64,000 nt of DNA from a virus: IMG/VR virus record IMGVR_UViG_3300032893_000013, positions 1-64,000 of that record, one strand, 5' to 3'. Both the position numbers and the translations under genes were made by a program. The notes under the pieces were generated by a model. The model searched no databases. It was not told the DNA's origin and saw only the letters and a program-made list of their open reading frames with translations. Positions 5,405 through 45,452 of this stretch are shown here, one piece after another; position 1 is the stretch's first letter; every line of letters starts with the position of its first letter.

Positions 5405-5888
5405 TTTGGGACGTTTCCCCATACCCTCAAGCCCCGTTACAGAAAAGTCTAGGCTATCTACTCTTTGGGGTTCACGCTTTTCTACTGCCCGTCCCGAGCA
5501 GTCGTGTCTACGGCCAGTATTTCTGATTCCTCAGTGCTTTGCCGTAAATGGCCAGCTTCCCACTGTTTATCCGACAGGTGCTTTGCCTTTTCAAAACCAA
5601 AATAAACCGGACGCAACTCCGGAGTGTATGTCTTTCGGGAGGGCAGCTACCCCTTCCGTCTTCTGAGGGCATTATCACATCTGTCCCTCTAGGCAGTTTC
5701 CCCGATGTGTCGAGGCTCACTCAGACTGCCGAACTGCCAACCTAGTCCTACGCCCGAGGCGCTCGACTGCTTGTTGGTAACGGAAACAACTATGGGTATT
5801 CCCGACTTTTTAATGTGCTTCTCGACCGCACTGCCCATAGGATTTGTGGCCAGTCCGCAGTTTCCCGCAGTAGCACCACGCAAATCAG
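5405..5888 (-). ncRNA. Large structured ncRNA candidate, unclassified
   Basis: ~480 nt without a credible ORF in a gene-dense genome; more than 10 stems incl. G-U pairs, GNRA loops, one long-range 8-bp helix. Confidence 0.6.
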
Positions 5889-5892
5889 AATC

Positions 5893-6228
5893 TTACTTTT
5901 TCGGAGCTTTGTCAATCTCCGTTTTAGGATTTTCGTCGCCTTTCGCTTCTTGCTCAATCTTCGTGCGCTGAATTGCCTTACATTCGTCAATCTGATCTTG
6001 AAGATTTTTCACTTCGCGCTTGCAGACTTCCAAAAATTCCTCACAGGTGATGCGAAGGATTTCAACATCGGTATCAGTGCCGGTGAATTTGATGGCTTCT
6101 TTGATCTGATCGACAAGAGTCCGGCGCTTGTCTTTGTTGTCGCTCATTTCAAGTTCAAAAATGTCTTCTTGGGATGGCTCCGGAGAACCATCCGCCTCTT
6201 TCATGAATTCATCAAAATCATCACTCAC
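5893..6228 (-). CDS. Acidic hypothetical protein
   Basis: Overlaps upstream gene; GGAG RBS. Confidence 0.7.
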   Translation of the reverse strand: MSDDFDEFMKEADGSPEPSQEDIFELEMSDNKDKRRTLVDQIKEAIKFTGTDTDVEILRITCEEFLEVCKREVKNLQDQIDECKAIQRTKIEQEAKGDENPKTEIDKAPKK

Positions 6229-6874
6229 AATTCTTCTCCACGAAGTTCACGAGCTTCTGATATGAAAGCGCCGGATCGCCATGCTTGAGTTTCCTATCGG
6301 CTTCTTCCTGAATCGCTTTCGTGTGATAAACGATGCTGTCGTGATGAGCTTTGATCGTGGCGAGCTTCCATTGTTCTGGGTTTTGATCCAAAATAGCCGG
6401 TCGATACGGCTCATGTCCATAATCGAAATCGTAAGCTGAAGTCAACTGTTCCACGGCAAATTTCAACGAATTGACGATCAATTCTTCTTCGTTCTGATTG
6501 ACGGCCTTATTGTAAAGAGCAGTTACCTTAGCCATAGACTGAGCGTGAGCGGCTTTCTTTTCTCTATGTTCCTGAACACGCTTTGAGTAGTCATTGCTCT
6601 CTGACTGCAATTTTTCATAAAACGCTTTTTCCCAATCCATCGGCGTCCGGTTCATGGCATCCGCAAGCTCCTTTGTCTCTTCTTTCAGGCGACGTTCGTG
6701 ATACGACTCTTCTTTGCGAAGTTTTTTTAAGCTGTCCATTATTTGCTGTTGAGTCATTTTGCCATCATCGCGCAAGTGCATACAAATTCCAAAGGCGCGG
6801 GCAACGCTTTCTTTAAGCCAGCGTTTCACGTCGTACTTCATTCCCTCAAGTTCAGCGGTATATCCTGTTGGCAT
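6221..6874 (-). CDS. Conserved-type phage protein (MPTGYTA...ARAFG family)
   Basis: Characteristic N-terminus, helical coiled-coil body, AGGAGG RBS. Confidence 0.75.
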   Translation of the reverse strand: MPTGYTAELEGMKYDVKRWLKESVARAFGICMHLRDDGKMTQQQIMDSLKKLRKEESYHERRLKEETKELADAMNRTPMDWEKAFYEKLQSESNDYSKRVQEHREKKAAHAQSMAKVTALYNKAVNQNEEELIVNSLKFAVEQLTSAYDFDYGHEPYRPAILDQNPEQWKLATIKAHHDSIVYHTKAIQEEADRKLKHGDPALSYQKLVNFVEKNCE

Positions 6875-19200: not shown

Positions 19201-20032
19201 GCAGATGCTTTTCGCCGTTTTCCCAGTTGTCCCATCCGTACTCATCTGGCCTATCAAAATCTTCCTGATCGGCAGCGGGCTTACCGCCAGTGATTCCAAG
19301 AGCATCATTCAAGTAGCTGTGGCGAGCTTCGGGAGAAAGTTTTTCAAGAACCTTGTCGAATTCATGTTCTCCCATTTTACTTTTGGGATTGCGAAGGACT
19401 TCGCCAGCATGTTCAGCATTGAAAAGAGGGTGTTCGTAATAGGTGCCAGGGAGTTTGTTGGTATCGTACTTCCTGTTGCGCATCATCCTATCGAAAAGTT
19501 CCTGATCCATGGCAGGATGCTTCATCATCTCGGATGACATGGCAACAGTTGGCTTATTGACTATCGCAGCAAGGTGCTCTCGATTGAATGAAGGATTCTT
19601 TTGAAGCTCGTCGAGATTTTCTTTACCAACCTTTTCATAGTTGTTGATGACATTATGTAGGGCATCCGAAGAAAGCGGGAAATTGTGCATCAAACCGCGC
19701 AGTTTGTATTTTTGCCAAAATTGATCTTTTTTACCCGCTACAATTTCGTCAAGAACGTGACGGACGGCGGCATCGTTGTTTTCCGTATTATTCAGCTTGT
19801 GGCGCTTCAACATTCCGGCTAGAGCTTCAAGATCCGAGTCATTAAAGTGATCGTGGTATTGTCCAGACAAAAGTTCTCTATAGACTTCTGGGGTGAAGTT
19901 CTTGGAGCGAAAGTATTTTTCAACTTCAGCTTTTTGGGCCTGCTTGTTAGGCTCTTCATCGTTTATTTCAGAAAAATCTATAGGCGACAGCAGGCCATGT
20001 TTTTTGGGTATTTGCTCTTCTGAATCTGGCAT
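16253..20032 (-). CDS. 1259-aa multi-domain virion protein: LRV/HEAT-like repeats, acidic region, polyvalent-protein-type nuclease-like domain, C-terminal module after IRKSE
   Basis: Repeated (N/H)P-x-x-(T/S)PE-x-(I/L) helices; HPV..TLGWVRY..IDEVQTD. Confidence 0.7.
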   Translation of the reverse strand: MPDSEEQIPKKHGLLSPIDFSEINDEEPNKQAQKAEVEKYFRSKNFTPEVYRELLSGQYHDHFNDSDLEALAGMLKRHKLNNTENNDAAVRHVLDEIVAGKKDQFWQKYKLRGLMHNFPLSSDALHNVINNYEKVGKENLDELQKNPSFNREHLAAIVNKPTVAMSSEMMKHPAMDQELFDRMMRNRKYDTNKLPGTYYEHPLFNAEHAGEVLRNPKSKMGEHEFDKVLEKLSPEARHSYLNDALGITGGKPAADQEDFDRPDEYGWDNWENGEKHLPRMAQAAAESKYLTPDQIEHIKRHGDFDQKFALFNNANIDPKHALEMLSLWDQDAHRKGYDEDDLKKKFREEHEDNLWDDYREEAEQEVQEDNPLSDYLKNFSDDELSQAYFDKDYSDWKKEWLRENKGEEAVPNPNFMSDEPETDYNGHNPKTVKLKDLDDSELEDLPEYDGDLEDKSQEAFKSAMDNEQTPDSIYEGYDESNSDAVYQRMNEMFADELKNWSSSDKFLPRHVSEAVKAPWADEENITPEQLKQGLDHPLKMVRDTAAANENMTPELISHVLGGDYDDDMKKAVLSNTKNLRPEHIKQAIESGDVDLAKKALSNPKATPEHIQLALEKFPDDDSVAQKALDHAAAPNEMAQAIVNKAVEKGDYQAGLRAALEPHFNISPESLLGVMQKVPNAQSQEAAVRHPNATAEVINHALNSDATHIRKAAHHVQQRRFPPTADPVNVKLGTHPLRILRDFLDQNGGTMSKSKMKSMGVNTAPIDKLFSPKGTISSKDIQGYIDQMPGTGYNTSHSDWEGGQRHSDEKQGVFQLNYTQDQVAQMEKEGVLPTFQKIHEATFRSGHPVRPNTLGWVRYTGNPETGFHIDEVQTDFGQSMIKKVAEQAKEALRTGAISEEQAEDAMKRAKDYYPEEHVQKITNILFGNRHPSEVLHEAFKEYMRQKGFGNTPVHIWQPQSKAPISGQMTQIQIKDKGKAKELMEDAKKGNLDHGARALIAWGQKSKLAPASFKELKPEHLDAIGDAYEKYLSGIQDQNEAAYIQHVEDRKKDPHLELKQIEVPSLPVPLPVHMQEGYGNIPKKMKYSEGTYGELPTQSNPEHKGNPTYKEAIRKSEVDASTRTKVAMTLKAIKDNAETWNQLKESNPQAYEAIHKLVQSLISVFKRKTGEDPQALVHELEIQQQIEEQQAQMQQDGGGQPGQPSQPGQPAQDEPIHRRKMVYAPGSIRRYSSQDERIKGQSGEWSSFGGGLQDPSEGKNG

Positions 20033-20889
20033 TAGAATTTACCCCTGGCTAGATCGAAAAGAAGCTGATGTTCAGGATTATTTCTGAGATGTTCCCGCTC
20101 ACGTTTTTTCTTTTCGATATGACGCTTACTAGATTCTTTGAACTTTTTACGGCTTTCAGATTCATTTTTCATAGAGTGACGATCAATGTGTCGCTGAATT
20201 TCTTTGGCGTATTTTTCGTCTTGCTTCGCGCTTTGCTTCTGAAGATATTTGGTGATCTTTGCGATCATTTTCGCAATATGATCTTCCTTGTTCTTCTTGT
20301 CCTGCTGCATGATACCGGCCAAAGATTGAACCACAGAAACGACGCTGGCATAAATGTCAGGAGCCTGTTGTTGCAACTGATCGAACATTTGCTTGTTGGC
20401 TTGGACTTGTTGCAGGATCTGGGCGATCTGCATTTTTTCGTCCTCAGAAATCGGGACGTACTTTTCAGACTTCTGGATTTTGTCTTGTTCGCCAACGGCA
20501 ACGGATTGAGGCTCGATGCTTAATTCGCCATCGTCGTGCATTGTTGGAGTGTAGACTTTGATTGAGCCGGGGGCGGCGGTTCTAGCGTAATTCAACGCCT
20601 CAGTGGCTTCCTTGGCATCTTCACCAACGCCAACTGTATTGGCGACACCTAACTCATCAGAGAGGCGCTCATGAATCTCTTTCACAACGGAAGACTGGTC
20701 AGCCGGAACAACAACAATCTCATTGCCGTGAAGCTGACCGATAGCGCGGCCTCCTTTGGAGGTGACGAGCGAAAAAATCATTCGCCGCGCCGATTCTAAT
20801 TTTCTGTGCATTTCCGCGATTACTTCGACATCTTGCTTGTCGGCTTGAGCGTCTGAAAATCCGAAAACGACAACGATCTCATCAATCAT
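20032..20889 (-). CDS. Degenerate GGDEF/mCpol-like domain plus helical module after IQKSE
   Basis: GG-x-x-I....GNE; TVGVG..A..AL..A....I.VY pattern; catalytic acidic motifs altered. Confidence 0.5.
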   Translation of the reverse strand: MIDEIVVVFGFSDAQADKQDVEVIAEMHRKLESARRMIFSLVTSKGGRAIGQLHGNEIVVVPADQSSVVKEIHERLSDELGVANTVGVGEDAKEATEALNYARTAAPGSIKVYTPTMHDDGELSIEPQSVAVGEQDKIQKSEKYVPISEDEKMQIAQILQQVQANKQMFDQLQQQAPDIYASVVSVVQSLAGIMQQDKKNKEDHIAKMIAKITKYLQKQSAKQDEKYAKEIQRHIDRHSMKNESESRKKFKESSKRHIEKKKREREHLRNNPEHQLLFDLARGKF

Positions 20890-23580: not shown

Positions 23581-24242
23581 TATTCGCTCCAGTTTCCAAG
23601 TCCACGGGGAGCACGAACTGTCGGATTGGCTCTTTGCCACGCCAACTGAAGCGCATATTCCTGGAATGGAGGTTTTTCGTCTTTCAACTCGTGATGCAGG
23701 TCCATATGCTTCTCATGCTCTCGCTTTGCATCTGAATGACCAAGGCCAGACATCTGGTAATGGCGAAGAGCAATGTCAGAGTGCATCAATTGTCGCATTT
23801 GTGAATCGTGAAGTTCGGGACTCCATTGATTGGGCTTCATCGTCTTGTGAGCGCGCTCCATTTCACGAGCCTTACCGGCCATCCGAGAATGATGAGACGC
23901 AAGATCGTAATGATTCTGAGGAGTGGACTCAAGAACGGGATTCCCCATGGCATCGCTCTGCTTTGGCTCTTGCTTCAGAAGGATTTCATTCAACTGTTGC
24001 ATTTTTTGCATATCTTCAGACTTGAACAAGCTGTCATTCCATTGAACGTTCTTGTGAACTTGCGAAGCCTGATGGATTGCAAATGAGCGGTGAGATCCCT
24101 GTCCCATGATTTCAAGAGCGCCGCCTTTGGTCTTCAAAACTACCATGTTGAGGCCGCCTTTGGTCAGAACGTGAAGGACATCTCCCTTGTCGGTTTTGCC
24201 AATCGTCTCTATTTTCTTAACATCGTCCGGAGTTAGCGTCAT
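23580..24242 (-). CDS. Putative internal head protein
   Basis: LFKSE, LLKQE motifs separate two domains. Confidence 0.65.
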   Translation of the reverse strand: MTLTPDDVKKIETIGKTDKGDVLHVLTKGGLNMVVLKTKGGALEIMGQGSHRSFAIHQASQVHKNVQWNDSLFKSEDMQKMQQLNEILLKQEPKQSDAMGNPVLESTPQNHYDLASHHSRMAGKAREMERAHKTMKPNQWSPELHDSQMRQLMHSDIALRHYQMSGLGHSDAKREHEKHMDLHHELKDEKPPFQEYALQLAWQRANPTVRAPRGLGNWSE

Positions 24243-26943
24243 TTGGTAGCCCCTTTGTCCATGCGGCGTTGATGACCGAATCAACAGGATTGTCGTTTGC
24301 CGCTTCCTGAAGTTTCGTCAGTCGTTCCACGACTGGTTTTGGATCTATGTAAAATTTGTTCATTATGTCGATCATGTCGTATTTGTTGAGCGATTGAAGC
24401 CAATGCTTTACATTCAGTTCAACTTCCTGACTGTCGATCTTTGGCATATGTTGGAATTTCTCTTCCGGACTCATGCTGTCTTTATAACCCCACATCCTCA
24501 AGATGTAGGGAACGAATACGTTCTTTTCGTGCGCAGGATCAAAAGTCATGTCTGCAAAGGAAGAGCCGTGGTCAATCATTTTAATGGATGATCCATCCGT
24601 CAATACGTTATTCCCGTGCGAATCTGCGTCGCCCAAAATATAAATCATGGCGGCGAGCTTGTGGAGATCACCCGACCGGCGATATTTGTCCAGCAAACCT
24701 TGCATGGCCTTTGGCCTTTCGCGCTCCATATCGACTCCAGCAATGTAAGCCTGTGGATACATGCGGATTGCGACTGCCGGAGTCGCTTCATTCTCTTTCC
24801 GCACAATCTCACCGAGAATTGCATGAGGCGTGTACATGCCGAGATTGAAGATCCGGTTGGCCAAATAGTAAAACGCCGTCTCTTTGACGGTTTGAAGGCC
24901 CTTGCTTACGGATTTAATGCCTGGACGCTCACCAAACGGCTCAACTTTTATGAGCCATGAGTTGTCAGGCTCAAAGCCAGCAACAAAACTCTTATGAGTG
25001 AATTTACCGACGTTGGAAATGTCATGTATCTGCCCGGACTTGATTGCGTCATTGATGAGCTTGATAGATCGAAAATTTTGCATCACATCCGTAAACGGAA
25101 CGAACTTTTCAATATCACCAAACTCGCCCTTTGAATGCGTTTCGGATTTTTTGAATGGCGCGTGCTCTTGTTGCTTTTCCAGTTCGAGCATTTGCTGATA
25201 TTTTCTGTATTTCTGAACGTATGGATGAAGTGGAATCTTTTCTTCTGGCGTTTCAAGCGTTTTGGTGATCCCGTTCAGCCACGCATAGGCCATCTTGTTC
25301 TGGTCACCGTCAAAAATGTTGCGCAGTCGATTCCAATGCGCGTTGGCAATGTCAACTTCGGCGGAAGGATGCCGCGTCATCAATTGGTGAACTTTGTCGT
25401 TGTCATGGTAATCGACGCCTTGAAATTCTGGATATTTGCGCATCAGGGCTGGATTCTTGCGAAGAGTTTCCATGATGGTCATAGGCATAAGGCCATATGC
25501 GCCATATGCGCTCGTACCAGCGTGCGGACCTTCTTCCATCATAGCGTGTGACGTATTGAGGCCGGAAGATGACTCGATCATCTTTATTGGCTTCAACCCC
25601 ATGGCTGGCATCATTGGTGCCCGTTGGATAGACTGAACCGGCTTGGGTTCAGTGACCTGTTGAACTGTGGCGGGCATATTTTCAACCGGCAGCTTATAAC
25701 CAGATTCCTGCGGCGCACCAACAAGCGCCAGGGCCGTAACTGCCGGAACTATTTTTTTCATCATGTTCTTTTCTAAATGTAGCACATCATCGTCGTTCAA
25801 GGAAGCGGTCATGATGTCGAACATATCAATAGTTTCAGGGAAGCCTTCAGTTTTTCTCAAATTTGCAGTTTTTACATCGCCATAATTGTCGGCGTTGTGT
25901 AATCCTTGCACTGGTTTGTCAGAATTCCAAAGGGGAAGAGGCTGAAACTGCATTGCCTTCGTAGAAATCTTGAACTTGCCTTCGGGATGACCAATAACCA
26001 ATTCAGCTTCATTTTCGTGAGCGTGCTGTTGGCCCGGAGTCGTGCGGTGAAAGCCAGAGTGAAGAACGGATTTCACGGGAATCCATTGGCTCATGACAAC
26101 GCCCTGGTCGCCCGGCTGATTTTTGATGTCAGACCGGCCCCAAACGAATCGAGAAGCCATTTCAGGATCGGCAGTCCAGCTTGTCAAGTGTGCGGTTGGG
26201 ATCAAGAAGTTCTTGTGATCGGCTTCATTCGTCTTTGGATCGTATTTGGCCTTTGCGCGAATCAATTGGCCATAATTGCCGTTGACGCCGCGATATAGCT
26301 TGATGTATGGGATGCCACGAAAATACTTCTTTGGAAGCGTATCATCTTCCATCACTTTCTTCTGAACTTCGCGGGCGTGCTCCATCATCGCAGGAATAAT
26401 GTGCATGAAATCCTTTGAAGATCCCACTAGGCCACGGTGATCCTTCAATTCTTCTGGCTTGCCAGTGAAAAGAGACTTTACGACCGCAAAATGATGAGGC
26501 TGGACCGACTTTTCATATCCATGCCAGAAGTCTGTCGCTTGGGTGAGAAGCTGATTCTTTTTGTTTCGGACAAAATGCGGATGGTTGAAAATGTAATTAG
26601 TGACGTAAGAATCGTTCATTCCCAATTCAGCAACGCGATTGAGAGTTTCGTTTGAAAGCGGCTCAGCTTCGGGATAATGTCCAGCCGCATCGCCAGGAAG
26701 ATGTCCGGCCAATTCAAAAAGGAACGACGGCAGATTCTGATGCTGAGTATGGTACTTGTTGCCCAAATGATTCAGAACTTTTTGAACAAAATGATCGGGA
26801 AGGGCGCCAGCACTTGGCAAACGCTGCCAAACGTCCCAATTGGCGGGAAGAGTCTTGGCATAATCGAACGCACGATCCCAGTCCTTGTTTTTGATTGCGT
26901 CAAAAACTGCCCGTTCATTTCTTTCGTGCGTTGCGTTGTCCAT
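24217..26943 (-). CDS. Polyprotein: R-S-E ADP-ribosyltransferase + lytic transglycosylase + PI3/4-kinase/HipA-like kinase
   Basis: LYRG..TSWT..ENEAE; IESS..GAYGLMP..AYAWLNG..YVQK; LIK..E-x-AFY..D-x-DSHGNN..IDHG. Confidence 0.8.
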   Translation of the reverse strand: MDNATHERNERAVFDAIKNKDWDRAFDYAKTLPANWDVWQRLPSAGALPDHFVQKVLNHLGNKYHTQHQNLPSFLFELAGHLPGDAAGHYPEAEPLSNETLNRVAELGMNDSYVTNYIFNHPHFVRNKKNQLLTQATDFWHGYEKSVQPHHFAVVKSLFTGKPEELKDHRGLVGSSKDFMHIIPAMMEHAREVQKKVMEDDTLPKKYFRGIPYIKLYRGVNGNYGQLIRAKAKYDPKTNEADHKNFLIPTAHLTSWTADPEMASRFVWGRSDIKNQPGDQGVVMSQWIPVKSVLHSGFHRTTPGQQHAHENEAELVIGHPEGKFKISTKAMQFQPLPLWNSDKPVQGLHNADNYGDVKTANLRKTEGFPETIDMFDIMTASLNDDDVLHLEKNMMKKIVPAVTALALVGAPQESGYKLPVENMPATVQQVTEPKPVQSIQRAPMMPAMGLKPIKMIESSSGLNTSHAMMEEGPHAGTSAYGAYGLMPMTIMETLRKNPALMRKYPEFQGVDYHDNDKVHQLMTRHPSAEVDIANAHWNRLRNIFDGDQNKMAYAWLNGITKTLETPEEKIPLHPYVQKYRKYQQMLELEKQQEHAPFKKSETHSKGEFGDIEKFVPFTDVMQNFRSIKLINDAIKSGQIHDISNVGKFTHKSFVAGFEPDNSWLIKVEPFGERPGIKSVSKGLQTVKETAFYYLANRIFNLGMYTPHAILGEIVRKENEATPAVAIRMYPQAYIAGVDMERERPKAMQGLLDKYRRSGDLHKLAAMIYILGDADSHGNNVLTDGSSIKMIDHGSSFADMTFDPAHEKNVFVPYILRMWGYKDSMSPEEKFQHMPKIDSQEVELNVKHWLQSLNKYDMIDIMNKFYIDPKPVVERLTKLQEAANDNPVDSVINAAWTKGLPNDANSGRC

Positions 26944-28151
26944 TACTTCCACCTGTGAATTGGAACTGACCATTCCATGACAGTGTGATCTGGGATGTCG
27001 ATTTTGACTTCTTTCATCGGAGTCTCAAGCTGCGCTCGAATATCGTCAAGAGAGCTTATGGATTTTTTCATATGCTCAGAACTTGCCAACTTCTTTTCGT
27101 CGCCCAATTGAACTGGAGGAAACATTTTGTTCATGTCGAGCTTGCTCTTGTCGCGCACAAAAATGTGGTGACGATCCGCTTCATACGCCGCAGACTCGCC
27201 AGGACTCATAAACGTATCCGCATCGGCTTTTGGATATTTCGCAATACGTCCACCGATGCCGGGAACGCTTCGGAATGACTTCCATGCCTTATGAGCTTCA
27301 GGCGACACGTTTGCTCCAGACGTGATTTGTCCCACGCCATGGACTAGACTCGCCATGTAAAGTTGGCGACCAAGACCTTTGCCTCGAACACTGGGATGAA
27401 CTTCAGACCACATTACAACGTTGGGATGCCTTCCGCCTTCCGCCATAGGATCTTCTTCGTGCTCAGTTTCCATGTACGCAAGCGGCTCCAAATTGTCTTT
27501 TGGATCGTACAGCGCATGGATGATTCGAGAATTGGGAAATTGCGGGAAATCTCTGCTAGGTTTACGTCGATACTGCCGATATTCCAGTCCATTGGGAAGA
27601 GCGACCTTTTTCACCTGGACATGAGCTTCGCTATTGGCCAAGTCAGGGAACGCTTTGTCTTTTCCTTCAGGAGAATAGCTCTCGAAACGAAGTGGAGCTT
27701 TTTGAAGATCCTCAGATTTTTTCGTCTGATTCTCAAAATTCAAATTGTGTTGCATGTACAGCGGGCCGTCAACGGTGTGAATTATGGTGTAATTGTCGGT
27801 CGGCTTGGATTTGGTCCAATTAGTGCCTTCTCCTGAAACTATTTTACCAACATCGGGACCATTGACATAATGAAGCTGATGCTTTCCCTCATTGGAGTGC
27901 AAAACAGATTCTTGACCAAAATCTTTGGCCATTTGCATGATGCCTTTGGTATTCTTCGGATTCTCAACCAAAATTGATCGTTCTGGCTCACCGTAAAATC
28001 CTTCAACGATATGGGCGTCTTCACCTTGCGAATTCAAAAACTTCGTCACATCTTCGATTGATGGATTCTGGGCATGAGCACTCTTGAAGCGCGGCTTCTC
28101 AGGCGTGAACATCATGTGATGGCTTGCGACAGGAGCAATGGCGTTACGCAT
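26943..28151 (-). CDS. Polyprotein: DUF3293-like domain + GNAT acetyltransferase
   Basis: G-x-YG-x-x-E-x-S..FGQESV; VHPSVRGKGLGRQLY..S-x-EA-x-x-x-W. Confidence 0.75.
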   Translation of the reverse strand: MRNAIAPVASHHMMFTPEKPRFKSAHAQNPSIEDVTKFLNSQGEDAHIVEGFYGEPERSILVENPKNTKGIMQMAKDFGQESVLHSNEGKHQLHYVNGPDVGKIVSGEGTNWTKSKPTDNYTIIHTVDGPLYMQHNLNFENQTKKSEDLQKAPLRFESYSPEGKDKAFPDLANSEAHVQVKKVALPNGLEYRQYRRKPSRDFPQFPNSRIIHALYDPKDNLEPLAYMETEHEEDPMAEGGRHPNVVMWSEVHPSVRGKGLGRQLYMASLVHGVGQITSGANVSPEAHKAWKSFRSVPGIGGRIAKYPKADADTFMSPGESAAYEADRHHIFVRDKSKLDMNKMFPPVQLGDEKKLASSEHMKKSISSLDDIRAQLETPMKEVKIDIPDHTVMEWSVPIHRWK

Positions 28152-29832
28152 GGAGATTCTCTTCTGTTGCAATTGGATGTGGATGGAAAAGCTGAACCGT
28201 TCCTTTAATCACTGGATGGTCGGCATTAGGTGCCCAGATTCCCTTATAGCCATTTTTCTTGATGTTCGAGAAAATCATGTCAGTGTTCCACGCGCCGCCA
28301 TTGTTTTGTATGGCTTGGCTGACCAATCCTTTCGGATCTTTTTGAAGATCGTAAAGGTGCTGTGGATGAACGAATGATTTGTAGCGAGAAGCGGCGCCGG
28401 AAGTCACGATGTCTTCGGGTTCAGTTCCTTTGATGTAATGGAAGCTAGTCTTTGTTTCCGGAAGACCATATTTGTATTGGCCGCCTGAACGAACGCCTGA
28501 CGATCCCATTTTTTCAGGATCAATTTCCTTCAAACCTTGAATTGGACTGTAGTGAATCAATTCCAAAGGACCTTCTTCAGAGCGCATGAGCGGAGCGCCA
28601 TCGCCACGATTGCGGATCTTGCGGTTTCTGATTATACCACGCTTTGGATGGCGAACCAAGTATCCGGACGCGAGCCAATTGCTCATGACATAAGCCGGGA
28701 TGTCGAAATGATCGTGATTTTCTTTTTCTTGCGGCTGTTGCGGATCGGGCTGATGCTGGAGATAACTGCTTTGCCAATCTTGAGGCTGATCTAGCACATC
28801 AACGTCCTGCTTTTCAAGTTCAGATGCCGCCAACTTCTTTCTTTTTCGCTCTGCATGAAGTTTTTCATGCTCTTTGCGCGGCATGTCCTTAATAGTTCTC
28901 CATCCTCCAGGACTTCCAGGCGTTTCCCAAAGGTTACGCAGGTGCCAATCAGTTCCCTCAACTCCACGCTCCGCAACTGGTATGGTGTGATGACCGTGCG
29001 TTTCTGGCTTTTTCTGTCCGGCATCTTTTTCAAGATCATGCAGTTTGAGCTTTTTATTGCGCTCAACTTCCAGTTGAGCAATCTCTTCTGGAGTGTAAAT
29101 TTTTACAGGATTGAATTTACTTTTTCGGCGGGCTTCAAGAGCTTCTTTGATCGCTTGATGTTTTCCAGATTGGCGTCCGCCCGGAGCAATCTGCTTCACT
29201 TCTTTGTTTGGACCTGCGACTTCCGCGACTTGACCAGTGCGGTTTGATTTTCTTTGCGCATTGTCCTTTTGACTGTAGAGCTTCATGGGCTTTGGGCCGT
29301 AGTCAGATTTCGCAATCTCCGCTTTTTTTGCGGAGCTTTCTTCTTTTTTCTCCGCAGACTTCATTCCCATGAAAGAAAATACACAGTTCTTATCGACGGG
29401 TGTGTGTGAATTTTCAACGATCTCAGTCGGGACGATCCCGCCTTTGCAGTCGATCCACTCCCACTTGCCAACTTCTTTGTCGGGATCGTTTTTCGTTGTC
29501 GGCCTTTCGCCTTCCCAGTTGTATTTGAAGGCGTGGATCTTTTTCTTTTTGCCGGTGAACGTCGTGACATCTTTCGATCCTAAATATTTGAGATCCTTGG
29601 CATCAACTTTAATTCCAGCTTCCTCAAACAACTCACGGACGGCACCTTCATTTTTCTCTTCACCTTTATCGAGATGTCCGCCCGGAAGCGTCCATCGTCC
29701 ATTGTCGCGACGTTTACCCATAAGCAGAGAATCACCGTCGCAAACGGCAATAGTAGCCACTTCAGAAGTGTCATCTTTGGCCGCCTTCCGTAAGAGATCG
29801 TAAATTTTGAGGGTTTTTTCGAGAAAATCCAT
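28144..29832 (-). CDS. Polyprotein: Nudix hydrolase + small modules + ART-like C-terminal domain
   Basis: Nudix box GGHLDKGEEKNEGAVRELFEEAG; C-terminal LIHYS..IDP..LYD..GYKGI. Confidence 0.8.
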   Translation of the reverse strand: MDFLEKTLKIYDLLRKAAKDDTSEVATIAVCDGDSLLMGKRRDNGRWTLPGGHLDKGEEKNEGAVRELFEEAGIKVDAKDLKYLGSKDVTTFTGKKKKIHAFKYNWEGERPTTKNDPDKEVGKWEWIDCKGGIVPTEIVENSHTPVDKNCVFSFMGMKSAEKKEESSAKKAEIAKSDYGPKPMKLYSQKDNAQRKSNRTGQVAEVAGPNKEVKQIAPGGRQSGKHQAIKEALEARRKSKFNPVKIYTPEEIAQLEVERNKKLKLHDLEKDAGQKKPETHGHHTIPVAERGVEGTDWHLRNLWETPGSPGGWRTIKDMPRKEHEKLHAERKRKKLAASELEKQDVDVLDQPQDWQSSYLQHQPDPQQPQEKENHDHFDIPAYVMSNWLASGYLVRHPKRGIIRNRKIRNRGDGAPLMRSEEGPLELIHYSPIQGLKEIDPEKMGSSGVRSGGQYKYGLPETKTSFHYIKGTEPEDIVTSGAASRYKSFVHPQHLYDLQKDPKGLVSQAIQNNGGAWNTDMIFSNIKKNGYKGIWAPNADHPVIKGTVQLFHPHPIATEENLHA

Positions 29833-29845
29833 GTACCCCTTAAAA

Positions 29846-29870
29846 TTAAGATTTTGGGATAAGTAGTGGA
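29846..29870 (-). promoter_or_regulatory. Late-promoter-like motif copy
   Basis: TCC-actac-TTA-tccca-AAATCTTAA. Confidence 0.7.
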
Positions 29871-29878
29871 TTTTGCTC

Positions 29879-30784
29879 TTAAATATGAGACATGAAGAAC
29901 TTCTTGCCGAAGCGTTTGGCAATCAGGTCTTCAAGGTCTTTGGCCTGCGTTTCGAGATCCTGCATACGCTGGACATACAGTTGCGGGCCGGGGCCTGACA
30001 CGCTCTGGGAAGAGCCGTCTAAGCTGATGGATTGACTATTGAATCGGTTAAGAGGACCGATCATAGAAAGGATTTTTTGAGCCGTCCGACAGCCGATCAA
30101 ATCGTTGATCGGAGCGGGGATCGCATTTTCATCGAATCCGCATGTATATTTTACAGCCCAGAAGCTGGGAATCCACTGGAGTTGCGAGAAAATCGCAAAA
30201 AGCGGAGCGGCGGCGCCAGCGGACGGGCCGACAACGCCATACGAACCGAAAGTCGTTTGAAGAGGAACGAAGTGAAGAAGTCCCTTGTGGGCCATGTTCA
30301 TGTCGATCCAGTCGAGAGGTACGATGTAAAGCGGAGCGCCCTCAACATCATTGCCTGCGTTATTCTGAACGTTCTGGACGCCATTTTGGATCGACTGACT
30401 GTTGCTGGCGCGGATTGCCACTTCCTGAACAGAATTCACGTTTCCGTGCTTGAGTTGCAGTTGGTTCCAACCTTGAAGATATTTCGTGCGATCAAACTCA
30501 ATACGGTCGAACCGCTGAACGGGAGTGATGTCGATTTTGATTTTCAGTTCAATGTCAGCGGCAGTCTTGCGAATGAAAGTTTTGATCGTATCATCACTCA
30601 GCTTTTCCTGGGTGATCGGGCTGACAAGCGGAATGCCGAAAAGGTATTCTTGACGAATACGCTCAGGAGTCATCCACTCTTCTACGCGAGAAAAGCCTGC
30701 TACGCCCTCACCAGAGAGCTTTGTTACTCCACCGGGATATAAACCAGCGGGATTCTTCTTGTTACTGCTGTAATCTTGTGACAT
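29879..30784 (-). CDS. Head-tail adaptor (neck) protein
   Basis: YLFGI..P, E..I-x-IDI-x-P, Y-x-x-GF, SISLDG-x-SQS pattern of SPO1/Twort-type adaptors. Confidence 0.7.
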   Translation of the reverse strand: MSQDYSSNKKNPAGLYPGGVTKLSGEGVAGFSRVEEWMTPERIRQEYLFGIPLVSPITQEKLSDDTIKTFIRKTAADIELKIKIDITPVQRFDRIEFDRTKYLQGWNQLQLKHGNVNSVQEVAIRASNSQSIQNGVQNVQNNAGNDVEGAPLYIVPLDWIDMNMAHKGLLHFVPLQTTFGSYGVVGPSAGAAAPLFAIFSQLQWIPSFWAVKYTCGFDENAIPAPINDLIGCRTAQKILSMIGPLNRFNSQSISLDGSSQSVSGPGPQLYVQRMQDLETQAKDLEDLIAKRFGKKFFMSHI

Positions 30785-38721: not shown

Positions 38722-38932
38722 GCGCGCATACGAGCGATATAACGTGGTCATTGACGAGTATGATTACTTTCATCTTGTCAATCAGATCATCACACTCGAA
38801 GCTGAATATGTTCGTGAAATCGAGCCAGGCAAAAGCCTGTGGAAAGTTCGGCACCAAGGCTGTATAATGTACGCTGTGTATCTGGAAGCGCACTTGAGTA
38901 TTTGCACCTTTCTTTTGAGGGAGATGATCTAA
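38642..38932 (+). CDS. Hypothetical protein
   Basis: H-S-I-K-R-A-Y-E-R-Y motif (RelE/BECR-like start possible); TAATG coupling. Confidence 0.55.
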   Translation: MDLSKKSDKKYQNVMQNIKGRVLHSIKRAYERYNVVIDEYDYFHLVNQIITLEAEYVREIEPGKSLWKVRHQGCIMYAVYLEAHLSICTFLLREMI

Positions 38933-41250
38933 TGGTTACGATCCTGGTTGGGCCGCAAGGTTCTGGAAAAACTACATACGCCCAAAATACGTCGGCTCAC
39001 CCGATCATCATTTCTCAAGATGTTCAGGGGCAGAAGGGACATTTGGAAGCCTACAAAAAGACTCTGGAGTGTGCTCCAAATTCACAACACATTATCGTGG
39101 ATCGAATCAACCACACGAGGGAACAGCGCGCACGATATATCGACTTGGCCAAAAAAGCCGGATGGAAAACTCAAATCGTTGTGATGAACAGGCCGTTTAG
39201 CGAGTGCTTGCGCCGCATGAACGACCGAAAAAATCACCCGACCATCCGCGATGAAGAGACGGCCATCCATGCGTTGCGAACCTACATCACTAAATACGAA
39301 CGTCCGTCTTACAGCGAAGCCGACGAGTTGGTCTTTTTGACCAGCTACGATCCATTCATGCTGGATTTGAATAATTTTCTTCCGATGGACACTCGCGTCA
39401 TCATCGTTGGCGACGTTCACGGATGCTATGATGAATTGATGGAGCTTCTGGAAAAGGCCAATTACAAGCGTGGGGAAGACGCAGTAATTTTTTGCGGCGA
39501 TATGATCGACCGTGGCCCTAAAATCAAAGAAGTTTTGAACTTTGCCCAAACGACTCCACGAGTGTTTTCCGTGACCGGGAATCATGAGTGGAAGTTCGCT
39601 CGTCATATTGCTAACTTGGGAGCCGGTCTTGTGTCAAAAATCAAGGTGGGACATGGGCTTCAACAAACCATCGACCAAGTTGGCGAAATCGACAACTATT
39701 TGATGGGATTCCTGTGGGATTTGCCGCTGGTCATTCGCTGGAAAAACAATTACATTTTCCACGCCGGGATTAATCCACGATACAACATGGCCCGCCAGAA
39801 CCGAGAATTTTTGCTGTATTGCCGGAAATTCAACGCCCAACTGAACACCTTTGACGATGAAAATTCGCCAATGTGGTATGAGCACGAATTGCATGAATCC
39901 TTTAAGAACTATAATTTGTTCTTCGGTCACGAAGTTCACATGATTACCGATCCATTGCACTTCGCCCAGCACCACAAGAACAAAAACGTCTTCCCTATGG
40001 ACGGCGGCTGTGTTTTTGGCGAAAACCTGAACGGGTGCATCATCAATCCGGACGGAATCCTAAAGATGCAATTCATTTCTGTTCCGTCACGTCAACCCAA
40101 AGAGGAGCATGAGCCTATGTACGAAAATTGGCAAGATCCCTACGAAGAGCGCGTCCGGGCTGGATATTTGAGCAAGGCCGAAGATGAGGATTTGGTTCTC
40201 TACAACTACACGGACAAATGCACCTTCGAGAAGAAGTGGGATAAATACACTCTGGAGTGCCGTGGTCTGATTTTCGAGAAGGCGACGGGAAGAGTTGTTG
40301 CGCGACCGTTCGGAAAGTTTTTCAATCTCGGCGAAACTGAAGACACGCAACTTCACCATCTGCCGAAAGAATCGTATTCGTGCTTCGAGAAAATGGATGG
40401 ATCGCTTGGAATCGTATTCTGGTACAAGGACCGATGGCGCGTTGCCACTCGCGGATCTTTGACTTCCATCCAAGCCAAAGAGGGTGAGAAAATTCTTCAA
40501 CAATACAAGCTGAACAAAAACGGCAATGAAGTTGGCGTCAATGTTACATTGCTGACCGAAATAATTTACCCAGAAAATCGTCACAATCCCGGCGCACGCC
40601 TTGTTGTCGATTACGGCAACACACGTATGCTTGTGCTGTTGGCGGCATTTTGTTCAATCACTGGTCAAGAATTTGATCGTGATGAAGTTGAGGGGTATGC
40701 GAAACGCACTGGAATGCCGATTGTTCAGCAATTCAATTACACAATCAACGAAATGATCGAAATGCAGAAGACGTTGCCAGCCGACAAAGAAGGATTCGTT
40801 GTTCGTTTTGAAAGCGGAATGCGCATCAAGATCAAGGGCGCTGAGTATCTGAAGATGAACAAGATCCTGAACTCCATCACTCCGCTGGTCATTTGGGGCA
40901 TGATGTGCGAATCGGAAGACTTTCAGGTTCCGAGCAGCTACATGATCCAGGTTCCTGAAGAATACCGAGATGAAGTTCTCGACATTGTGTACAAACTCAA
41001 AAAGAAGTCGGACGAAATCTTCAAGGAGATTGCCCACGACTTTGACATCGCGGTTGAGGACTCGAAAATTGACATTCTGCGGCCAAACGATCAGGCGACG
41101 AAAAAGGAACTTGGTCTGTATTTGACAAAAGGTCCAGGGCGCGCCAGATTGAAACACCCATCTATGATGTTCCCCATCTTGAATTCACGCCGAGACATCA
41201 TCGACGAATACTGTCGCAAAATGAGCCGTCCCACATCAAACCAGTTGTAG
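38932..41250 (+). CDS. Trifunctional RNA repair enzyme: polynucleotide kinase + metallophosphatase + T4 Rnl1-type ligase
   Basis: GPQGSGKTT; GDVHG, GDMIDRG, GNHE, HAG, FGH, DGGC; YNYT..ECRGL..ARPFGKFFN, EKMDGS, ATRGS, EGFVV, KIK. Confidence 0.92.
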   Translation: MVTILVGPQGSGKTTYAQNTSAHPIIISQDVQGQKGHLEAYKKTLECAPNSQHIIVDRINHTREQRARYIDLAKKAGWKTQIVVMNRPFSECLRRMNDRKNHPTIRDEETAIHALRTYITKYERPSYSEADELVFLTSYDPFMLDLNNFLPMDTRVIIVGDVHGCYDELMELLEKANYKRGEDAVIFCGDMIDRGPKIKEVLNFAQTTPRVFSVTGNHEWKFARHIANLGAGLVSKIKVGHGLQQTIDQVGEIDNYLMGFLWDLPLVIRWKNNYIFHAGINPRYNMARQNREFLLYCRKFNAQLNTFDDENSPMWYEHELHESFKNYNLFFGHEVHMITDPLHFAQHHKNKNVFPMDGGCVFGENLNGCIINPDGILKMQFISVPSRQPKEEHEPMYENWQDPYEERVRAGYLSKAEDEDLVLYNYTDKCTFEKKWDKYTLECRGLIFEKATGRVVARPFGKFFNLGETEDTQLHHLPKESYSCFEKMDGSLGIVFWYKDRWRVATRGSLTSIQAKEGEKILQQYKLNKNGNEVGVNVTLLTEIIYPENRHNPGARLVVDYGNTRMLVLLAAFCSITGQEFDRDEVEGYAKRTGMPIVQQFNYTINEMIEMQKTLPADKEGFVVRFESGMRIKIKGAEYLKMNKILNSITPLVIWGMMCESEDFQVPSSYMIQVPEEYRDEVLDIVYKLKKKSDEIFKEIAHDFDIAVEDSKIDILRPNDQATKKELGLYLTKGPGRARLKHPSMMFPILNSRRDIIDEYCRKMSRPTSNQL

Positions 41251-44057: not shown

Positions 44058-45452
44058 TTACTTCGTCAAGTTATCGACGAGGATATTGAAGCGGGGCAAT
44101 TTCACCATCAACGAGCAGAAGCGATAGAACGCTTTGGGAGTCGTGAGATCGGTTTGAGCGAGTTGTTGTGATTTGAACGAACTCAGTTCAGCCATTTCAA
44201 GACCGCGCATGTCAAGGGCGAAACCCGTGACGAAGCCAGGGAGCCGGTTGTTCAGGTCAGTGAAGACCGTAGTAGCGGCACCGCTGTTCACAACGCGACC
44301 AACATATTGGCGCACGCCGGAAGCATCGTTCGCATTCGAGCGATAGACGTTGAAGTAGCGAGCGGCAATACCGCCAGCGGGAGTGATTGTAACGGCAATC
44401 TGGTTACCGTTTGCCGACATCGTAATGTTCGACACAGCCGAAGCCGGGCTTTCACCCACATCACCACAAGCAGTTACGCTGTAGTAATAAACTTCACCGG
44501 AAAGGAACGAAGTCGATCCAGCCGATTGACCGAGCGAGATGCCAGGAGCGGCGGGAACACCAACACGCGGACGTGCGGGCGAGGTTTTACCAGACAAGAA
44601 ACGGCTAGATTCAATCGAGATCGCGCCGCCAGCTACCCACTGTTCATTCAACGAAGCGCCAGTGGCTTTTTGAGGCGAACCGGCAAGAACGATACGTTCT
44701 TTGGAGTGGCTGATTTTGTTGTACGCGCCATGAGTAAGCGGATCAATGTACAACTTCTCGGGATTACCGTGGCTCATTTGAGCGCGGCTGTAAATGTCCT
44801 CAATCGTGCTCTGTTGGAGAACGCCGTTCTGAGGAATCACAACGGAACCGTCAGCGCCATATTCTTGGAACATCAAGTCTTTGGTGCTGTTGTCGAAATC
44901 CGACTGACGAATTTGGGGATCAAGACCGTGCATACCGGGTTCCGACTGGCTCATCGCCAACGGGTTACCGTCATACAATCCACCGTTCGAGTAAGCGGAC
45001 TTACCACGGAAAAGGTGGAACTCGATGTCACCAGCGAGTTTGAGAGCGGCAGAGGCTTCAACGCGATCTTCGGCTTTAACACCGTCGAAGGTTTCAACCA
45101 ACTGAGCTTGCAAAGTCACCCGACGAACGTGAACATAATATGCCATCGGAACAACGGCACGGTTCAACGTATCGGTTTCTTCTTGACCAACGGCGCCTTC
45201 CAGCACTGCCGATCCACCGAAGATACCATAATCCAGTTGTCTATTGAACTGGACAAGAGTGCCCTTGGCAGGAGTAACCTTGAAGATTTTTTGCAACTTG
45301 ATTTTGCTGTCATCATAAGTTGCGATGTTCATTACATCACTGAGGTCTTCGCGTTGGAGCGAGGAACCTTGAGAGAGCGTGCCTGGGGCAGCGTTCATCC
45401 CACCGGCTTCTAAAGCCTTTTTCAACATTTCAAGTTTGGCGATGTCTAACAC
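44058..45452 (-). CDS. Major capsid protein with inserted Ig/FN3-like domain
   Basis: LKK|ALEAG..GSSLQREDL N-terminus of SPO1/Twort-type capsids; YYYSVTA..GES..FNVYRS insertion; position after scaffold. Confidence 0.9.
   Translation of the reverse strand: MLDIAKLEMLKKALEAGGMNAAPGTLSQGSSLQREDLSDVMNIATYDDSKIKLQKIFKVTPAKGTLVQFNRQLDYGIFGGSAVLEGAVGQEETDTLNRAVVPMAYYVHVRRVTLQAQLVETFDGVKAEDRVEASAALKLAGDIEFHLFRGKSAYSNGGLYDGNPLAMSQSEPGMHGLDPQIRQSDFDNSTKDLMFQEYGADGSVVIPQNGVLQQSTIEDIYSRAQMSHGNPEKLYIDPLTHGAYNKISHSKERIVLAGSPQKATGASLNEQWVAGGAISIESSRFLSGKTSPARPRVGVPAAPGISLGQSAGSTSFLSGEVYYYSVTACGDVGESPASAVSNITMSANGNQIAVTITPAGGIAARYFNVYRSNANDASGVRQYVGRVVNSGAATTVFTDLNNRLPGFVTGFALDMRGLEMAELSSFKSQQLAQTDLTTPKAFYRFCSLMVKLPRFNILVDNLTK

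Follow-up and report, generated by a model that had tools for sequence, protein, structure and literature searches.

How could a single phage gene supply enzymes for two different compartments of the host cell? The question is raised by a long minus-strand gene in the window, i.e. the whole stretch of 64,000 nucleotides that was analysed. A sequence-only reading had seen in it an ADP-ribosyltransferase (ART), a lytic transglycosylase (SLT) and a kinase fused in one chain, and had proposed that cleavage beside a cryptic basic-hydrophobic segment would target only the muralytic piece to the membrane or periplasm. Having followed up this proposal, we regard it as evenly balanced, the two parts being taken jointly, that the gene product is a polyvalent effector polyprotein from a large, Mx1-like tailed phage, with the domain order helical-ART-linker 1-SLT-linker 2-kinase (Table 1), and that the chain would be cleaved into pieces of which the SLT piece is membrane-targeted and the others are cytoplasmic.

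Table 1. Features of the candidate polyprotein gene, with coordinates in the window.
Feature	Residues	Coordinates	Strand	Basis
Whole gene, candidate polyvalent virion effector polyprotein		24217..26943	-	ORF and translation
N-terminal all-helical domain	11-174	26452..26943	-	AF2 helices 6-170, pLDDT >90
Probable R-S-E ADP-ribosyltransferase	175-389	25807..26451	-	Conserved residues and fold matches
Linker 1, low confidence	390-453	25615..25806	-	pLDDT 30-37, sole short helix 409-416
L-E-K-N, hydrophobic-x-K-small motif, candidate prohead-protease site	400-403	25765..25776	-	Motif family-wide
Basic n-region MMKK (404-407) and Ala/Gly-rich hydrophobic run IVPAVTALALVGA (408-420)	404-420	25714..25764	-	Hydropathy, conservation
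Family-1 (SLT/GH23-like) lytic transglycosylase, E467-S468 catalytic	454-604	25162..25614	-	Fold and motif
Linker 2, low confidence	605-614	25132..25161	-	pLDDT <50
C-terminal PI3/PI4-kinase-fold kinase	615-914	24232..25131	-	Fold, motif, relatives' Pfam matches

Gene, phage context and catalytic domains

The ORF spans 24217..26973 (-) and encodes 918 aa, or 908 aa if translation starts at M11 (26943). The start codon of M11 overlaps the stop of the upstream gene as TAATG and is preceded by a Shine-Dalgarno-like run, GGTGGAAG; the N-termini of orthologues coincide with M11 and not with the upstream ATG at 26973. M11 is therefore likely to be the true start, in agreement with the gene end at 26943 given by the earlier reading. 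The virus record, which is 108 kb long and ~67% complete, carries terminase, portal, protease and capsid genes within the window, and the gene block, set between capsid and tail-sheath genes, shows synteny with Mx1 and also with four metagenomic relatives. Relatives of the polyprotein number 1206 at E<=1e-3, with no cellular relatives among 185,579 representative genomes; of the deposited phage records, Mx1 alone yields a match (31% identity over aa 460-913). Like the polyvalent proteins described in phages and conjugative elements by Iyer, Burroughs, Anand, de Souza and Aravind in 2017 (PMC5512222), the chain combines at least two unrelated catalytic domains (ART, SLT and PI3/4K-fold kinase, by model and fold searches) and is encoded in a late, virion-gene setting of a phage (an IMG/VR virus record).

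The AF2 model of the whole chain has a mean pLDDT of 88 and consists of three ordered blocks, low confidence being limited to aa 390-453 and 605-614, the two motif-bearing linkers. Residue conservation was counted in 13 full-length orthologues (35-57% identity), across which the catalytic-type residues are invariant. The N-terminal helical domain always lies directly upstream of the ART in relatives, as judged by comparison of architectures. In the ART domain, the motifs R228 (LYRGV), S265-W266 (TSWT) and E322-x-E324 (nt about 26292-26002) follow one another in the canonical order; S265, W266 and E322 are invariant, E324 is kept in at least 90% of orthologues and R228 is replaced by K in 2 of 13. 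Fold searches with VIA returned modest scores (Z 5.9 for TreX, 5.8 for EcPltA and 5.3 for Vis), Foldseek listed Vis, cholera toxin A1 and PARP10 with probabilities of 0.15-0.5, and the Atlas leads (DRAT, ADPrib_exo_Tox and Mod_ADP_RT) all scored <0.9. The fold matches are thus weak but consistent and, together with the conserved residues, uphold the earlier ART call, making aa 175-389 a probable R-S-E ADP-ribosyltransferase. The LRKTE motif (aa 372-376; 25860-25846) falls within the less ordered C-terminal tail of this domain.

The SLT-type domain noted earlier holds by both fold and motif. Its lysozyme-like fold, in which the catalytic Glu of the E-S motif ends the first helix, matches MltC with Z 12.0 (rmsd 2.7, 124 aligned) and Slt70 and MltE with Z 10.3; the best Foldseek matches are Slt, Slt70 and Cj0843 (probability 1.0), and the SLT of T7 core protein gp16 is also among the structural matches (9jyy_I). 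The motifs are IESS (E467 S468, both invariant), GLMP (494-497) and AYAWLNG (562-568). The family is too divergent for the Pfam model PF01464, which does not match the query and matches 2 of 52 relatives weakly (best E 0.0069).

For the kinase, too, fold, motif and relatives' Pfam matches bear out the PI3/4K-HipA-like assignment. VIA gave Z 20 to PI4KII alpha/beta (250-256 aligned, rmsd about 3.1), followed by CtkA, HipT and HipA with Z 11-13.6; the Foldseek E was 3.7e-5, and NCBIfam RisK1 matched weakly at 770-809. PF00454 (PI3_PI4_kinase) leaves the query unmatched and is found in 20 of 52 relatives, with a best E of 2.6e-8. The modelled domain is therefore closest to type II PI 4-kinases, then to CtkA/HipT/HipA, with which it shares the fold, the catalytic loop D784-x-H786-x-x-N789, the metal-binding Asp in I-D801-H802-G and an ATP-binding Lys/Glu pair; K676, E698, D784, H786, N789, D801 and H802 are invariant, and D801-H802-G803 is among the key residues. 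It differs from them in being a putative kinase at 10-15% identity and a C-terminal module of a phage polyprotein. This domain is of independent interest in that, among solved structures, eukaryotic type II PI 4-kinases are its closest relatives.

A signal-like stretch and its flanking motifs

Linker 1, which is likewise of low confidence in a second structure model, contains LEK|NMMKKIVPAVTALALVGA (aa 400-420; 25776-25714), exactly where the sequence-only reading had placed it, as were all the other motifs. The hydrophobic run is by far the top hydropathy segment of the polyprotein. In the query, MMKK is followed by an uncharged run of 13-14 aa that closes with a conserved G-x-P, G419 being invariant in the orthologues. 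The stretch (aa 403-420) has a pLDDT <50 and, lying inside a 64-residue low-confidence linker, is not buried within a fold. Among 52 SLT-bearing relatives, each representing a cluster, such a stretch lies 29-90 aa ahead of the SLT in 50, as opposed to 46 of 525 other 90-aa windows in the same proteins (9%; Fisher p 1.6e-42). The conservation that the earlier reading had asked about is thus present and, by its peak hydropathy and its association with the SLT, we take the stretch to be more than chance. Family-wide, the run measures a median of 15 aa, short for a membrane span, and is composed of A (31%), G (13%) and S+T (15%), i.e. 59% A/G/S/T; net charge ahead of it is positive in 41 of 50 relatives, and it is found at protein positions from 15 to 1169. 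In a stand-alone SLT homologue (183 aa) adjoining a portal gene, the stretch stands at the true N-terminus.

With its basic n-region and uncharged h-region, aa 404-420 resembles a signal peptide or a SAR domain. We nevertheless call it signal-like, since it is internal (aa 403-420 of 918) and would become N-terminal only after cleavage. Signal-peptidase rules disfavour cleavage where Pro directly follows the site, so the sequence VGA-P at the end of the run counts against signal-peptide cleavage in the query.

In 49 of 50 relatives, a hydrophobic-x-K-small (h-x-K-small) motif lies 2-18 aa ahead of the stretch, the background rate being 0.13 per window. The 85 hydrophobic uncharged runs found in 152 relatives include 48 that precede an SLT, 46 of these with the motif; no run of this motif-bearing type lies ahead of ART, kinase or N-terminal domains in the same set. 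On the other side of the SLT, F-K-K-S-E in linker 2 (aa 607-611; 25155-25141) is a candidate prohead-protease site with an invariant K609, and the motif falls -5..+14 aa from the SLT end in 47 of 47 relatives and upstream of the kinase in 69 of 79. The conserved cassette can be summarised as [h-x-K-small] - basic residues - ~15-aa Ala/Gly-rich run - ~30-40-aa linker - SLT - [h-x-K-S/A-E].

Classical substrates of prohead proteases include the capsid protein N-terminus, the C-terminal region of the protease itself and the scaffold protein. In the query genome the same motif is found in all three settings, at the N-terminus of the capsid protein (LKKA-LEAG), in the C-terminal region of the protease (LRKA-LEAG) and 9 times in a scaffold-like protein; in Mx1, too, the capsid protein and the scaffold-like protein upstream of it carry the motif. 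The earlier idea of cut sites gains support from this distribution and from the family-wide bracketing of the SLT. The pre-hydrophobic motif (LEK-N/G/S, then a hydrophobic or basic residue) differs, however, from the junction motif K-S/A-E, and judging from these sequences one protease may not cut both. We recognised no capsid-targeting sequence in the polyprotein, and no conserved cut-site motif near its N-terminus in the 13 orthologues.

Proposed cleavage and sorting, and competing explanations

In the mechanism that we favour, the polyprotein would be incorporated into the prohead, where the prohead protease would cut the linker motifs to yield three pieces of roughly 43, 23 and 35 kDa that exit the capsid together with the DNA. 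The freed SLT piece would begin with a basic-hydrophobic, signal- or SAR-like N-terminus, either inserting straight from the periplasmic side as it is ejected or being exported by Sec from the cytoplasm; it would thereby be anchored at the cytoplasmic membrane with its catalytic domain in the periplasm, opening the peptidoglycan. The ART and kinase pieces, lacking such a tag, would act on cytoplasmic targets. We propose that in the producer cell the stretch is silent because, being internal, short and weakly hydrophobic, it is no N-terminal signal. The suggestion that processing doubles as sorting is left standing by the conservation of the stretch and its place outside the modelled folds; packaging, cleavage and targeting we infer. 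A broader version, possible though short of probable in our estimate, is that a sorting code operates through capsid maturation proteolysis, the protease unmasking a cryptic Sec/SAR-type signal on the SLT cassette. Host export machinery or spontaneous insertion would then send the SLT fragment to the membrane or periplasm after ejection, and its former chain-mates (ART, kinase, NUDIX and others) would remain cytoplasmic.

We consider it unlikely that the stretch instead acts uncleaved, as an internal element interacting with the membrane in an ejected protein whose first junction remains intact. It could tether the whole chain or form part of a trans-envelope conduit such as that built by T7 gp14-16, leaving the SLT periplasmic and the N-terminal part cytoplasmic. 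The match to the gp16 SLT and the positive charges N-terminal to the stretch, which fit an N-in orientation, speak for this, and LEK-N/G/S-x, without the acidic residue typical of other junctions, may not be a cut site. All downstream parts would have to cross the membrane too, however, including the kinase or, among relatives, as much as ~1000 aa of NUDIX-type and other cytoplasmic-type domains, and a stable internal span would need a longer, less Ala-rich run. Moreover, h-x-K-small is kept beside the stretch even where just 5-20 residues precede it, and its retention at a protein N-terminus is hard to account for unless the motif is used. It is decidedly improbable, in our view, that motif and stretch form an assembly element (prohead-core, scaffold or portal-binding, or capsid-targeting) travelling with the SLT cassette. 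Such a role would suit a stretch that is unstructured in the model, in a chain where no other capsid-targeting sequence was recognised, and PMC5694885 describes T4 capsid-targeting sequences as short peptides beside protease sites. Yet the stretch is SLT-specific: it is missing before ART, kinase and other modules that would equally need packaging, many relatives without an SLT also lack it, and the stand-alone SLT homologue bears it at its own N-terminus.

We give little credence to the SLT cassette being a SAR-endolysin-like lysis enzyme that acts as infection ends and not during entry, even though the stretch is SAR-like in composition and no Phage_lysozyme, Amidase_2 or SLT Pfam match, and hence no separate endolysin by these three families, was found elsewhere in the 108-kb record. 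With the record ~67% complete, an endolysin may lie outside it; the cassette sits in large polyproteins within a virion-gene block, bracketed by motifs of capsid-maturation substrates, and an internal stretch cannot be an N-terminal SAR signal before processing, which is expected in proheads only. Scarcely credible is an inert relic, left when a gene for a secreted bacterial SLT was captured, signal peptide included, and fused in frame. In several distant relatives the stretch does end in an A-x-A-type sequence followed by Q/D/N, like genuine signal-peptidase sites, but its persistence in 50 of 52 cluster representatives of 25-57% identity, next to linker that varies freely, suggests purifying selection on hydrophobic character; it also has its own conserved end (G419-x-P) and upstream motif, and the representative genomes surveyed hold no cellular relatives. 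As for the Met codons at aa 404-405 serving as an internal start for an ordinary Sec-exported SLT-kinase protein, Met-Met-Lys-Lys does resemble a natural N-terminus, and still we accord this next to no weight: Met is present only in the closest orthologue, the others having K-G/S-x-K; no clear Shine-Dalgarno sequence lies upstream, where the run reads AGAAAAGAAC as against GGTGGAAG before the real start; and the kinase would be exported into the ATP-free periplasm.

Known systems and implications

Fusion of enzymes that act in different compartments is present, as the sequence-only reading maintained, but is less unusual than it implied, since chains that join lysozyme, ART and kinase domains have already been described as a theme among phage polyvalent proteins (PMC5512222). 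Those proteins likewise carry several unrelated catalytic domains per chain (including ART, lysozyme/transglycosylase and kinase) and are encoded among late virion genes, and delivery with the DNA and processing into functional units have been proposed for them as here (PMC5512222). Their kinase, however, is of a truncated Ser/Thr/Tyr type and not of the PI3/PI4K fold, and processing has been ascribed to a zincin-like peptidase (PMC5512222), a domain of which none was found in the query chain, whose junction motifs match prohead-protease substrates. The terms 'transmembrane' and 'signal peptide' are absent from that paper, and 'hydrophobic' occurs solely in an alignment colour key (PMC5512222).

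A membrane segment exposed by capsid-protease trimming has a precedent in the ejection protein gp47 of Salmonella phage SPN3US. According to the excerpt of PMC5694885, this head protein is trimmed by the prohead protease, its mature fragment starts, like the proposed SLT piece, with a predicted transmembrane segment, and its authors suggest contact with the host membrane. As described there, gp47 sheds one N-terminal propeptide and is not a multi-enzyme chain like the three-enzyme query, no muralytic domain is reported for it, and the SPN3US cleavage motif is A/S-x-E as opposed to h-x-K-small. On these two sources, wall-acting plus cytoplasmic enzyme fusions are already known, and an N-terminal membrane segment following capsid-protease trimming is reported. 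T4 Alt, an ART packaged in the phage head, is trimmed by the prohead protease and injected with the DNA into the host cytoplasm (T4 annotation; PMC5694885), a course comparable to the one proposed for the query ART. It has a short N-terminal capsid-targeting peptide, where none was seen in the query, is not fused to SLT or kinase, and bears no detectable sequence or profile relation to the query's orthologue profile (hhalign probability 0.1).

In Myxococcus phage Mx1 the counterpart is a gene pair, WNM70333 ('NUDIX hydrolase', 1479 aa) and WNM70334 ('kinase', 619 aa). Ahead of its SLT, too, stand L-S-K-S, basic residues and an Ala-rich run of 19 aa, and LEKSE comes after it; the cassette occupies 1061-1250 of the NUDIX-containing chain and a separate gene encodes the kinase, whereas the query is one chain, and no Mx1 match to the query-type ART was found. 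By definition, a SAR domain is a weakly hydrophobic segment with 2-3 basic residues in front of it (PMC9239132). SAR endolysins (P1 Lyz, Mu gp22) share with the query the basic residues and a Gly/Ala/Ser/Thr-rich segment before the muralytic domain, but their segment of about 20 residues is at the true N-terminus and serves lysis (PMC9239132), whereas that of the query is internal, has a family median of 15 and belongs to a putative virion polyprotein.

How large phages parcel out their internal head proteins after ejection is largely unexplored. The cassette suggests a rule that could be read from sequence, namely that a muralytic module is flanked on both sides by maturation-protease motifs and carries a latent signal-like peptide at its front. 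Should this rule hold, it would explain how one gene supplies enzymes for two compartments, would predict which fragments of uncharacterised polyvalent proteins act on the envelope, and would make h-x-K-small the probable cleavage motif of the prohead protease of Mx1-like phages. The sorting code, if true, would cover at least 50 sequence clusters of polyproteins and would be a phage counterpart of bipartite transit peptides and of signal unmasking in alphavirus polyproteins.

The polyprotein and its enzymatic modules

The ORF encoding the polyprotein is stop-free over 918 aa, and its true start is, judging from the sequence, most likely Met11 at 26943, because this ATG overlaps the upstream stop codon as TAATG, is preceded by a GGTGGAAG run and lies where all orthologues begin. 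The gene end proposed in the sequence-only reading corresponds to this start, and every motif listed in that reading was recovered from the translation where it had been placed. The listed TTG start of the downstream gene, at 24284, overlaps the polyprotein end by 68 nt (24217-24284); a later in-frame ATG, ~27 nt before the polyprotein stop, is the more plausible start of that gene.

Features of the polyprotein and of other proteins encoded in the window (polyprotein motifs from translation of the ORF)
Feature	Residues or length (aa)	Position (nt)	Strand
Polyprotein ORF	918	24217-26973	(-)
ART residues	R228, S265, E322-x-E324		(-)
LRKTE	372-376		(-)
LEK-NMMKK-IVPAVTALALVGA (exact)	400-420	25776-25714	(-)
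SLT motifs IESS, GLMP, AYAWLNG			(-)
FKKSE	607-611		(-)
Kinase motifs	D784-x-H-x-x-N789, I-D801-H-G		(-)
mCpol/GGDEF-like protein	285	20032-20889	(-)
S-adenosylmethionine-lyase-like region protein	409	26943-28172	(-)
NUDIX protein		28144-29922	(-)
Polynucleotide kinase/RNA ligase-like protein	803	38839-41250	(+)
Capsid protein		44058-45452	(-)
Scaffold-like acidic protein	298	45465-46361	(-)
Head-maturation protease		46960-47970	(-)

For the whole polyprotein, Pfam and PHROGs returned nothing usable, NCBIfam a weak RisK1 stretch only, and sequence searches of the PDB, with the single protein as well as with an orthologue profile, were equally unproductive. Relatives numbered 1206 in an exhaustive HMMER search, and 134 of these reached E<=1e-30. 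The AlphaFold2 model, built on 52 relatives (mean pLDDT 88), contains ordered blocks at aa 6-389, 454-604 and 615-914, separated by low-confidence linkers (aa 390-453 and 605-614).

The solved structures nearest to the kinase module (aa 615-914) are eukaryotic type II PI 4-kinases, on which it superposes with Z 20 over ~250 residues (rmsd ~3.1; Foldseek), well above the values for CtkA, HipT and HipA (Z 11-13.6). Its catalytic residues are invariant in the orthologue alignment, and 20 of the 52 relatives match Pfam PI3_PI4_kinase. In a second model, covering aa 170-604, the middle block superposes on lytic transglycosylases (MltC, Z 12.0; Slt70 and MltE, Z 10.3), with phage phiKZ gp144 and T7 gp16 also among the structural matches; Glu467 and Ser468 are invariant. 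Fold and catalytic residues thus bear out the SLT and the PI3/4K-HipA-like kinase assigned from sequence motifs. The ADP-ribosyltransferase (ART) claimed alongside them, located behind an N-terminal helical domain, keeps R, S and E-x-E in canonical order with Ser265 and Glu322 invariant among orthologues, and its structural matches are modest (TreX, Z 5.9; EcPltA, 5.8; Vis, 5.3), so that we call this domain a probable ART. Its language-model neighbours are ART families, at scores below 0.9 that serve as leads only; the segment alone had no match in phage records even at E 1, and T4 Alt showed no relation to the orthologue profile (hhalign).

When the four blocks were mapped onto the 150 best cluster representatives, the modules were found to recombine freely. 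The SLT lies anywhere from near the N-terminus to residue 1210, the kinase is C-terminal in the large majority of architectures, and the helical domain is upstream of the ART in every case. Chains with a C-terminal kinase range from 243 to ~2300 aa, and many of them have a K-S-E motif and a helical element of conserved sequence (A-L-W-E-x-D-G-D ... A-A-L-x-A-Y-G-L) ahead of the kinase.

A hydrophobic stretch coupled to the transglycosylase

In a hydropathy scan, no other segment of the polyprotein came close to aa 408-420, in the linker ahead of the SLT, in hydrophobicity. Using a 12-residue window with a Kyte-Doolittle mean of at least 1.45 as the criterion, we detected such a stretch 29-90 aa (median 41) upstream of the SLT in 50 of the 52 SLT-bearing proteins with sufficient upstream sequence, versus 46 of 525 other 90-aa windows in the same proteins (p 1.6e-42). 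Furthermore, 48 of the 85 uncharged hydrophobic runs in 152 proteins directly precede an SLT, the others lying within folded domains or lacking the accompanying features. On these counts we reject chance hydrophobicity, and a buried core strand is rejected on the pLDDT below 50 of the stretch, which lies within a linker of 64 residues. At the level of sequence, the stretch is thus a conserved, SLT-specific feature, and in the model it is not buried.

The run has a median length of 15 uncharged residues (below 18 in 34 of 50), is weakly hydrophobic (Ala 31%, Gly 13%, Ser plus Thr 15%) and, in 41 of 50 proteins, comes after residues whose net charge is positive. It ends in G-x-P, with A-x-A-like sequences in distant members. 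Gly419 is invariant among orthologues, and the linker around it varies in length and sequence. The same arrangement occurs at residue 1061 of the NUDIX protein of the Myxococcus phage Mx1. Short stand-alone homologues were scarce: only four were recovered, most of them fragmentary. A stand-alone homologue of 183 aa (5860-6411 (+) of L017, a ~70-kb contig of a smaller phage type), adjoining a 718-aa portal-like gene (3704-5860), has 13 hydrophobic residues at its true N-terminus; in a 321-aa homologue on another contig (L012, 5482-6447), L-N-K-N, basic residues and then the hydrophobic run occur ~70 residues in.

A candidate maturation motif and its genomic setting

A hydrophobic-x-K-[G/S/N/T/A] motif lies 2-18 aa before the stretch in 49 of 50 proteins (background 0.13 per window), and the strict form L-[EQDNA]-K-[GSNTA] in 28 of 50 (background 0.028). 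No Glu follows the motif at this place before the stretch. The motif recurs, mostly with Glu next (K-S-E or K-A-E), between -5 and +14 residues from the SLT end in all 47 of 47 proteins, and it also precedes the kinase domain in 69 of 79; Lys609 is invariant in orthologues. The result is a conserved cassette of motif, basic residues, hydrophobic run, linker, SLT and motif.

The motif is also present in head-related proteins of this phage, as L-K-K-A at the N-terminus of the capsid protein and as L-R-K-A in the C-terminal part of the protease. Each is followed by L-E-A-G, giving a near-identical L-K/R-K-A-L-E-A-G with A-A-P-G a few residues on, which is likely to be the maturation cleavage site of both proteins. 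The scaffold-like acidic protein, encoded just upstream of the capsid gene, contains nine hydrophobic-x-K-small motifs as well as an E-E-S-S-M-K-K unit repeated in tandem about seven times, and is probably the main prohead-protease substrate. In Mx1, the pattern is likewise present in the capsid protein (L-R-K-A-M-E-A-G) and in the protein upstream of it. Since capsid, protease and scaffold are classical prohead-protease substrates, the element is a credible candidate for a maturation-cleavage motif. Pfam assigned the prohead protease to no family, so that homology gives no clue to its specificity, and nothing specific on a Lys-directed enzyme of this kind emerged from the literature searched.

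The source record is a 108-kb IMG/VR virus with an estimated completeness of 67%. Large terminase, portal, head-maturation protease, scaffold-like acidic repeat protein and major capsid protein are all encoded on the strand of the polyprotein gene, which belongs to a block with further enzyme-bearing late proteins. Among these, the S-adenosylmethionine-lyase-like and mCpol-like neighbours carry K-S-E motifs and the NUDIX protein related K-A-E and K-S-D forms; all three look like additional packaged counter-defence effectors. The protein with polynucleotide kinase/phosphoesterase-like and RNA-ligase (Rnl1-type) PHROG matches is an RNA-repair fusion. Mx1 was the sole phage with a match when 50,697 phage records were searched by tblastn with the complete protein. 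Its equivalent block, between the capsid and tail-sheath genes, encodes a 1479-aa "NUDIX hydrolase" (WNM70333) followed by a 619-aa "kinase" (WNM70334), and the order is kept in four metagenomic relatives (39-56% identity). None of 185,579 representative prokaryote genomes scanned contained a relative, which gives no sign of prophage origin and no lead to a host.

Cleavage as a possible sorting step

These features are consistent with a scheme in which the chain would be incorporated into proheads and cut within its linkers to give three pieces, the ART, the SLT (~aa 403-611, ~23 kDa) and the kinase, all to be ejected along with the DNA. The freed SLT piece would begin with a basic-hydrophobic segment resembling a Sec signal or a SAR domain, and might be directed to the cytoplasmic membrane and periplasm, the site of peptidoglycan, either by inserting directly from the periplasmic side in the course of ejection or by Sec-dependent export from the cytoplasm; the ART and kinase pieces, which lack the tag, would have their site of action in the cytoplasm. 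A signal peptide works when it forms a free N-terminus, and a short segment rich in Ala anchors poorly within a chain, so the stretch would be inactive in the producer cell as long as the polyprotein is uncut. The Pro that follows the run in the polyprotein (V-G-A-P) makes its removal by signal peptidase less likely and fits an anchor better. By definition, a SAR domain has 2-3 basic residues ahead of a segment of weak hydrophobicity (PMC9239132). Cleavage that doubles as sorting, as the sequence-only reading had proposed, is plausible, if unproven.

Other roles for the stretch have to be weighed against cleavage-dependent sorting. It could act without cleavage, anchoring the chain from within or forming part of a conduit in the way of T7 gp16, but long cytoplasmic-type domains would then have to cross the membrane, and a role in assembly or capsid targeting would leave its exclusiveness to the SLT unexplained. 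Less likely still, the cassette might serve lysis in the manner of a SAR endolysin, a reading in line with the lack of any other muralytic Pfam family in the incomplete record: Phage_lysozyme, Amidase_2 and SLT families had no match in the 108 kb. An endolysin may lie outside the recovered 67% of the genome, belong to another family or be too divergent. The conservation pattern fits poorly with an inert remnant of a secreted SLT that was once captured and, together with the non-conserved Met, with an internal translation start; at Met404/405 such a start is rejected, this Met not being conserved and no clear Shine-Dalgarno sequence being present.

Virion-delivered "polyvalent proteins" that fuse ART, lysozyme/transglycosylase and kinase domains have been described, with zincin-like peptidase domains proposed to process them into functional units (PMC5512222); their kinase is of another type, and a term search of that paper for 'transmembrane' and 'signal peptide' gave no occurrence. 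The closest precedent for an unmasked tag is the ejection protein gp47 of giant phage SPN3US (PMC5694885), which loses a propeptide to the prohead protease, as determined by mass spectrometry, and in mature form begins with a predicted transmembrane segment. What is new here is that the putative tag lies inside a multi-enzyme chain, is strictly tied to a single module (the SLT) and is bracketed by candidate maturation motifs in at least 50 sequence clusters; the type-II-PI4K-like kinase module is new as well.
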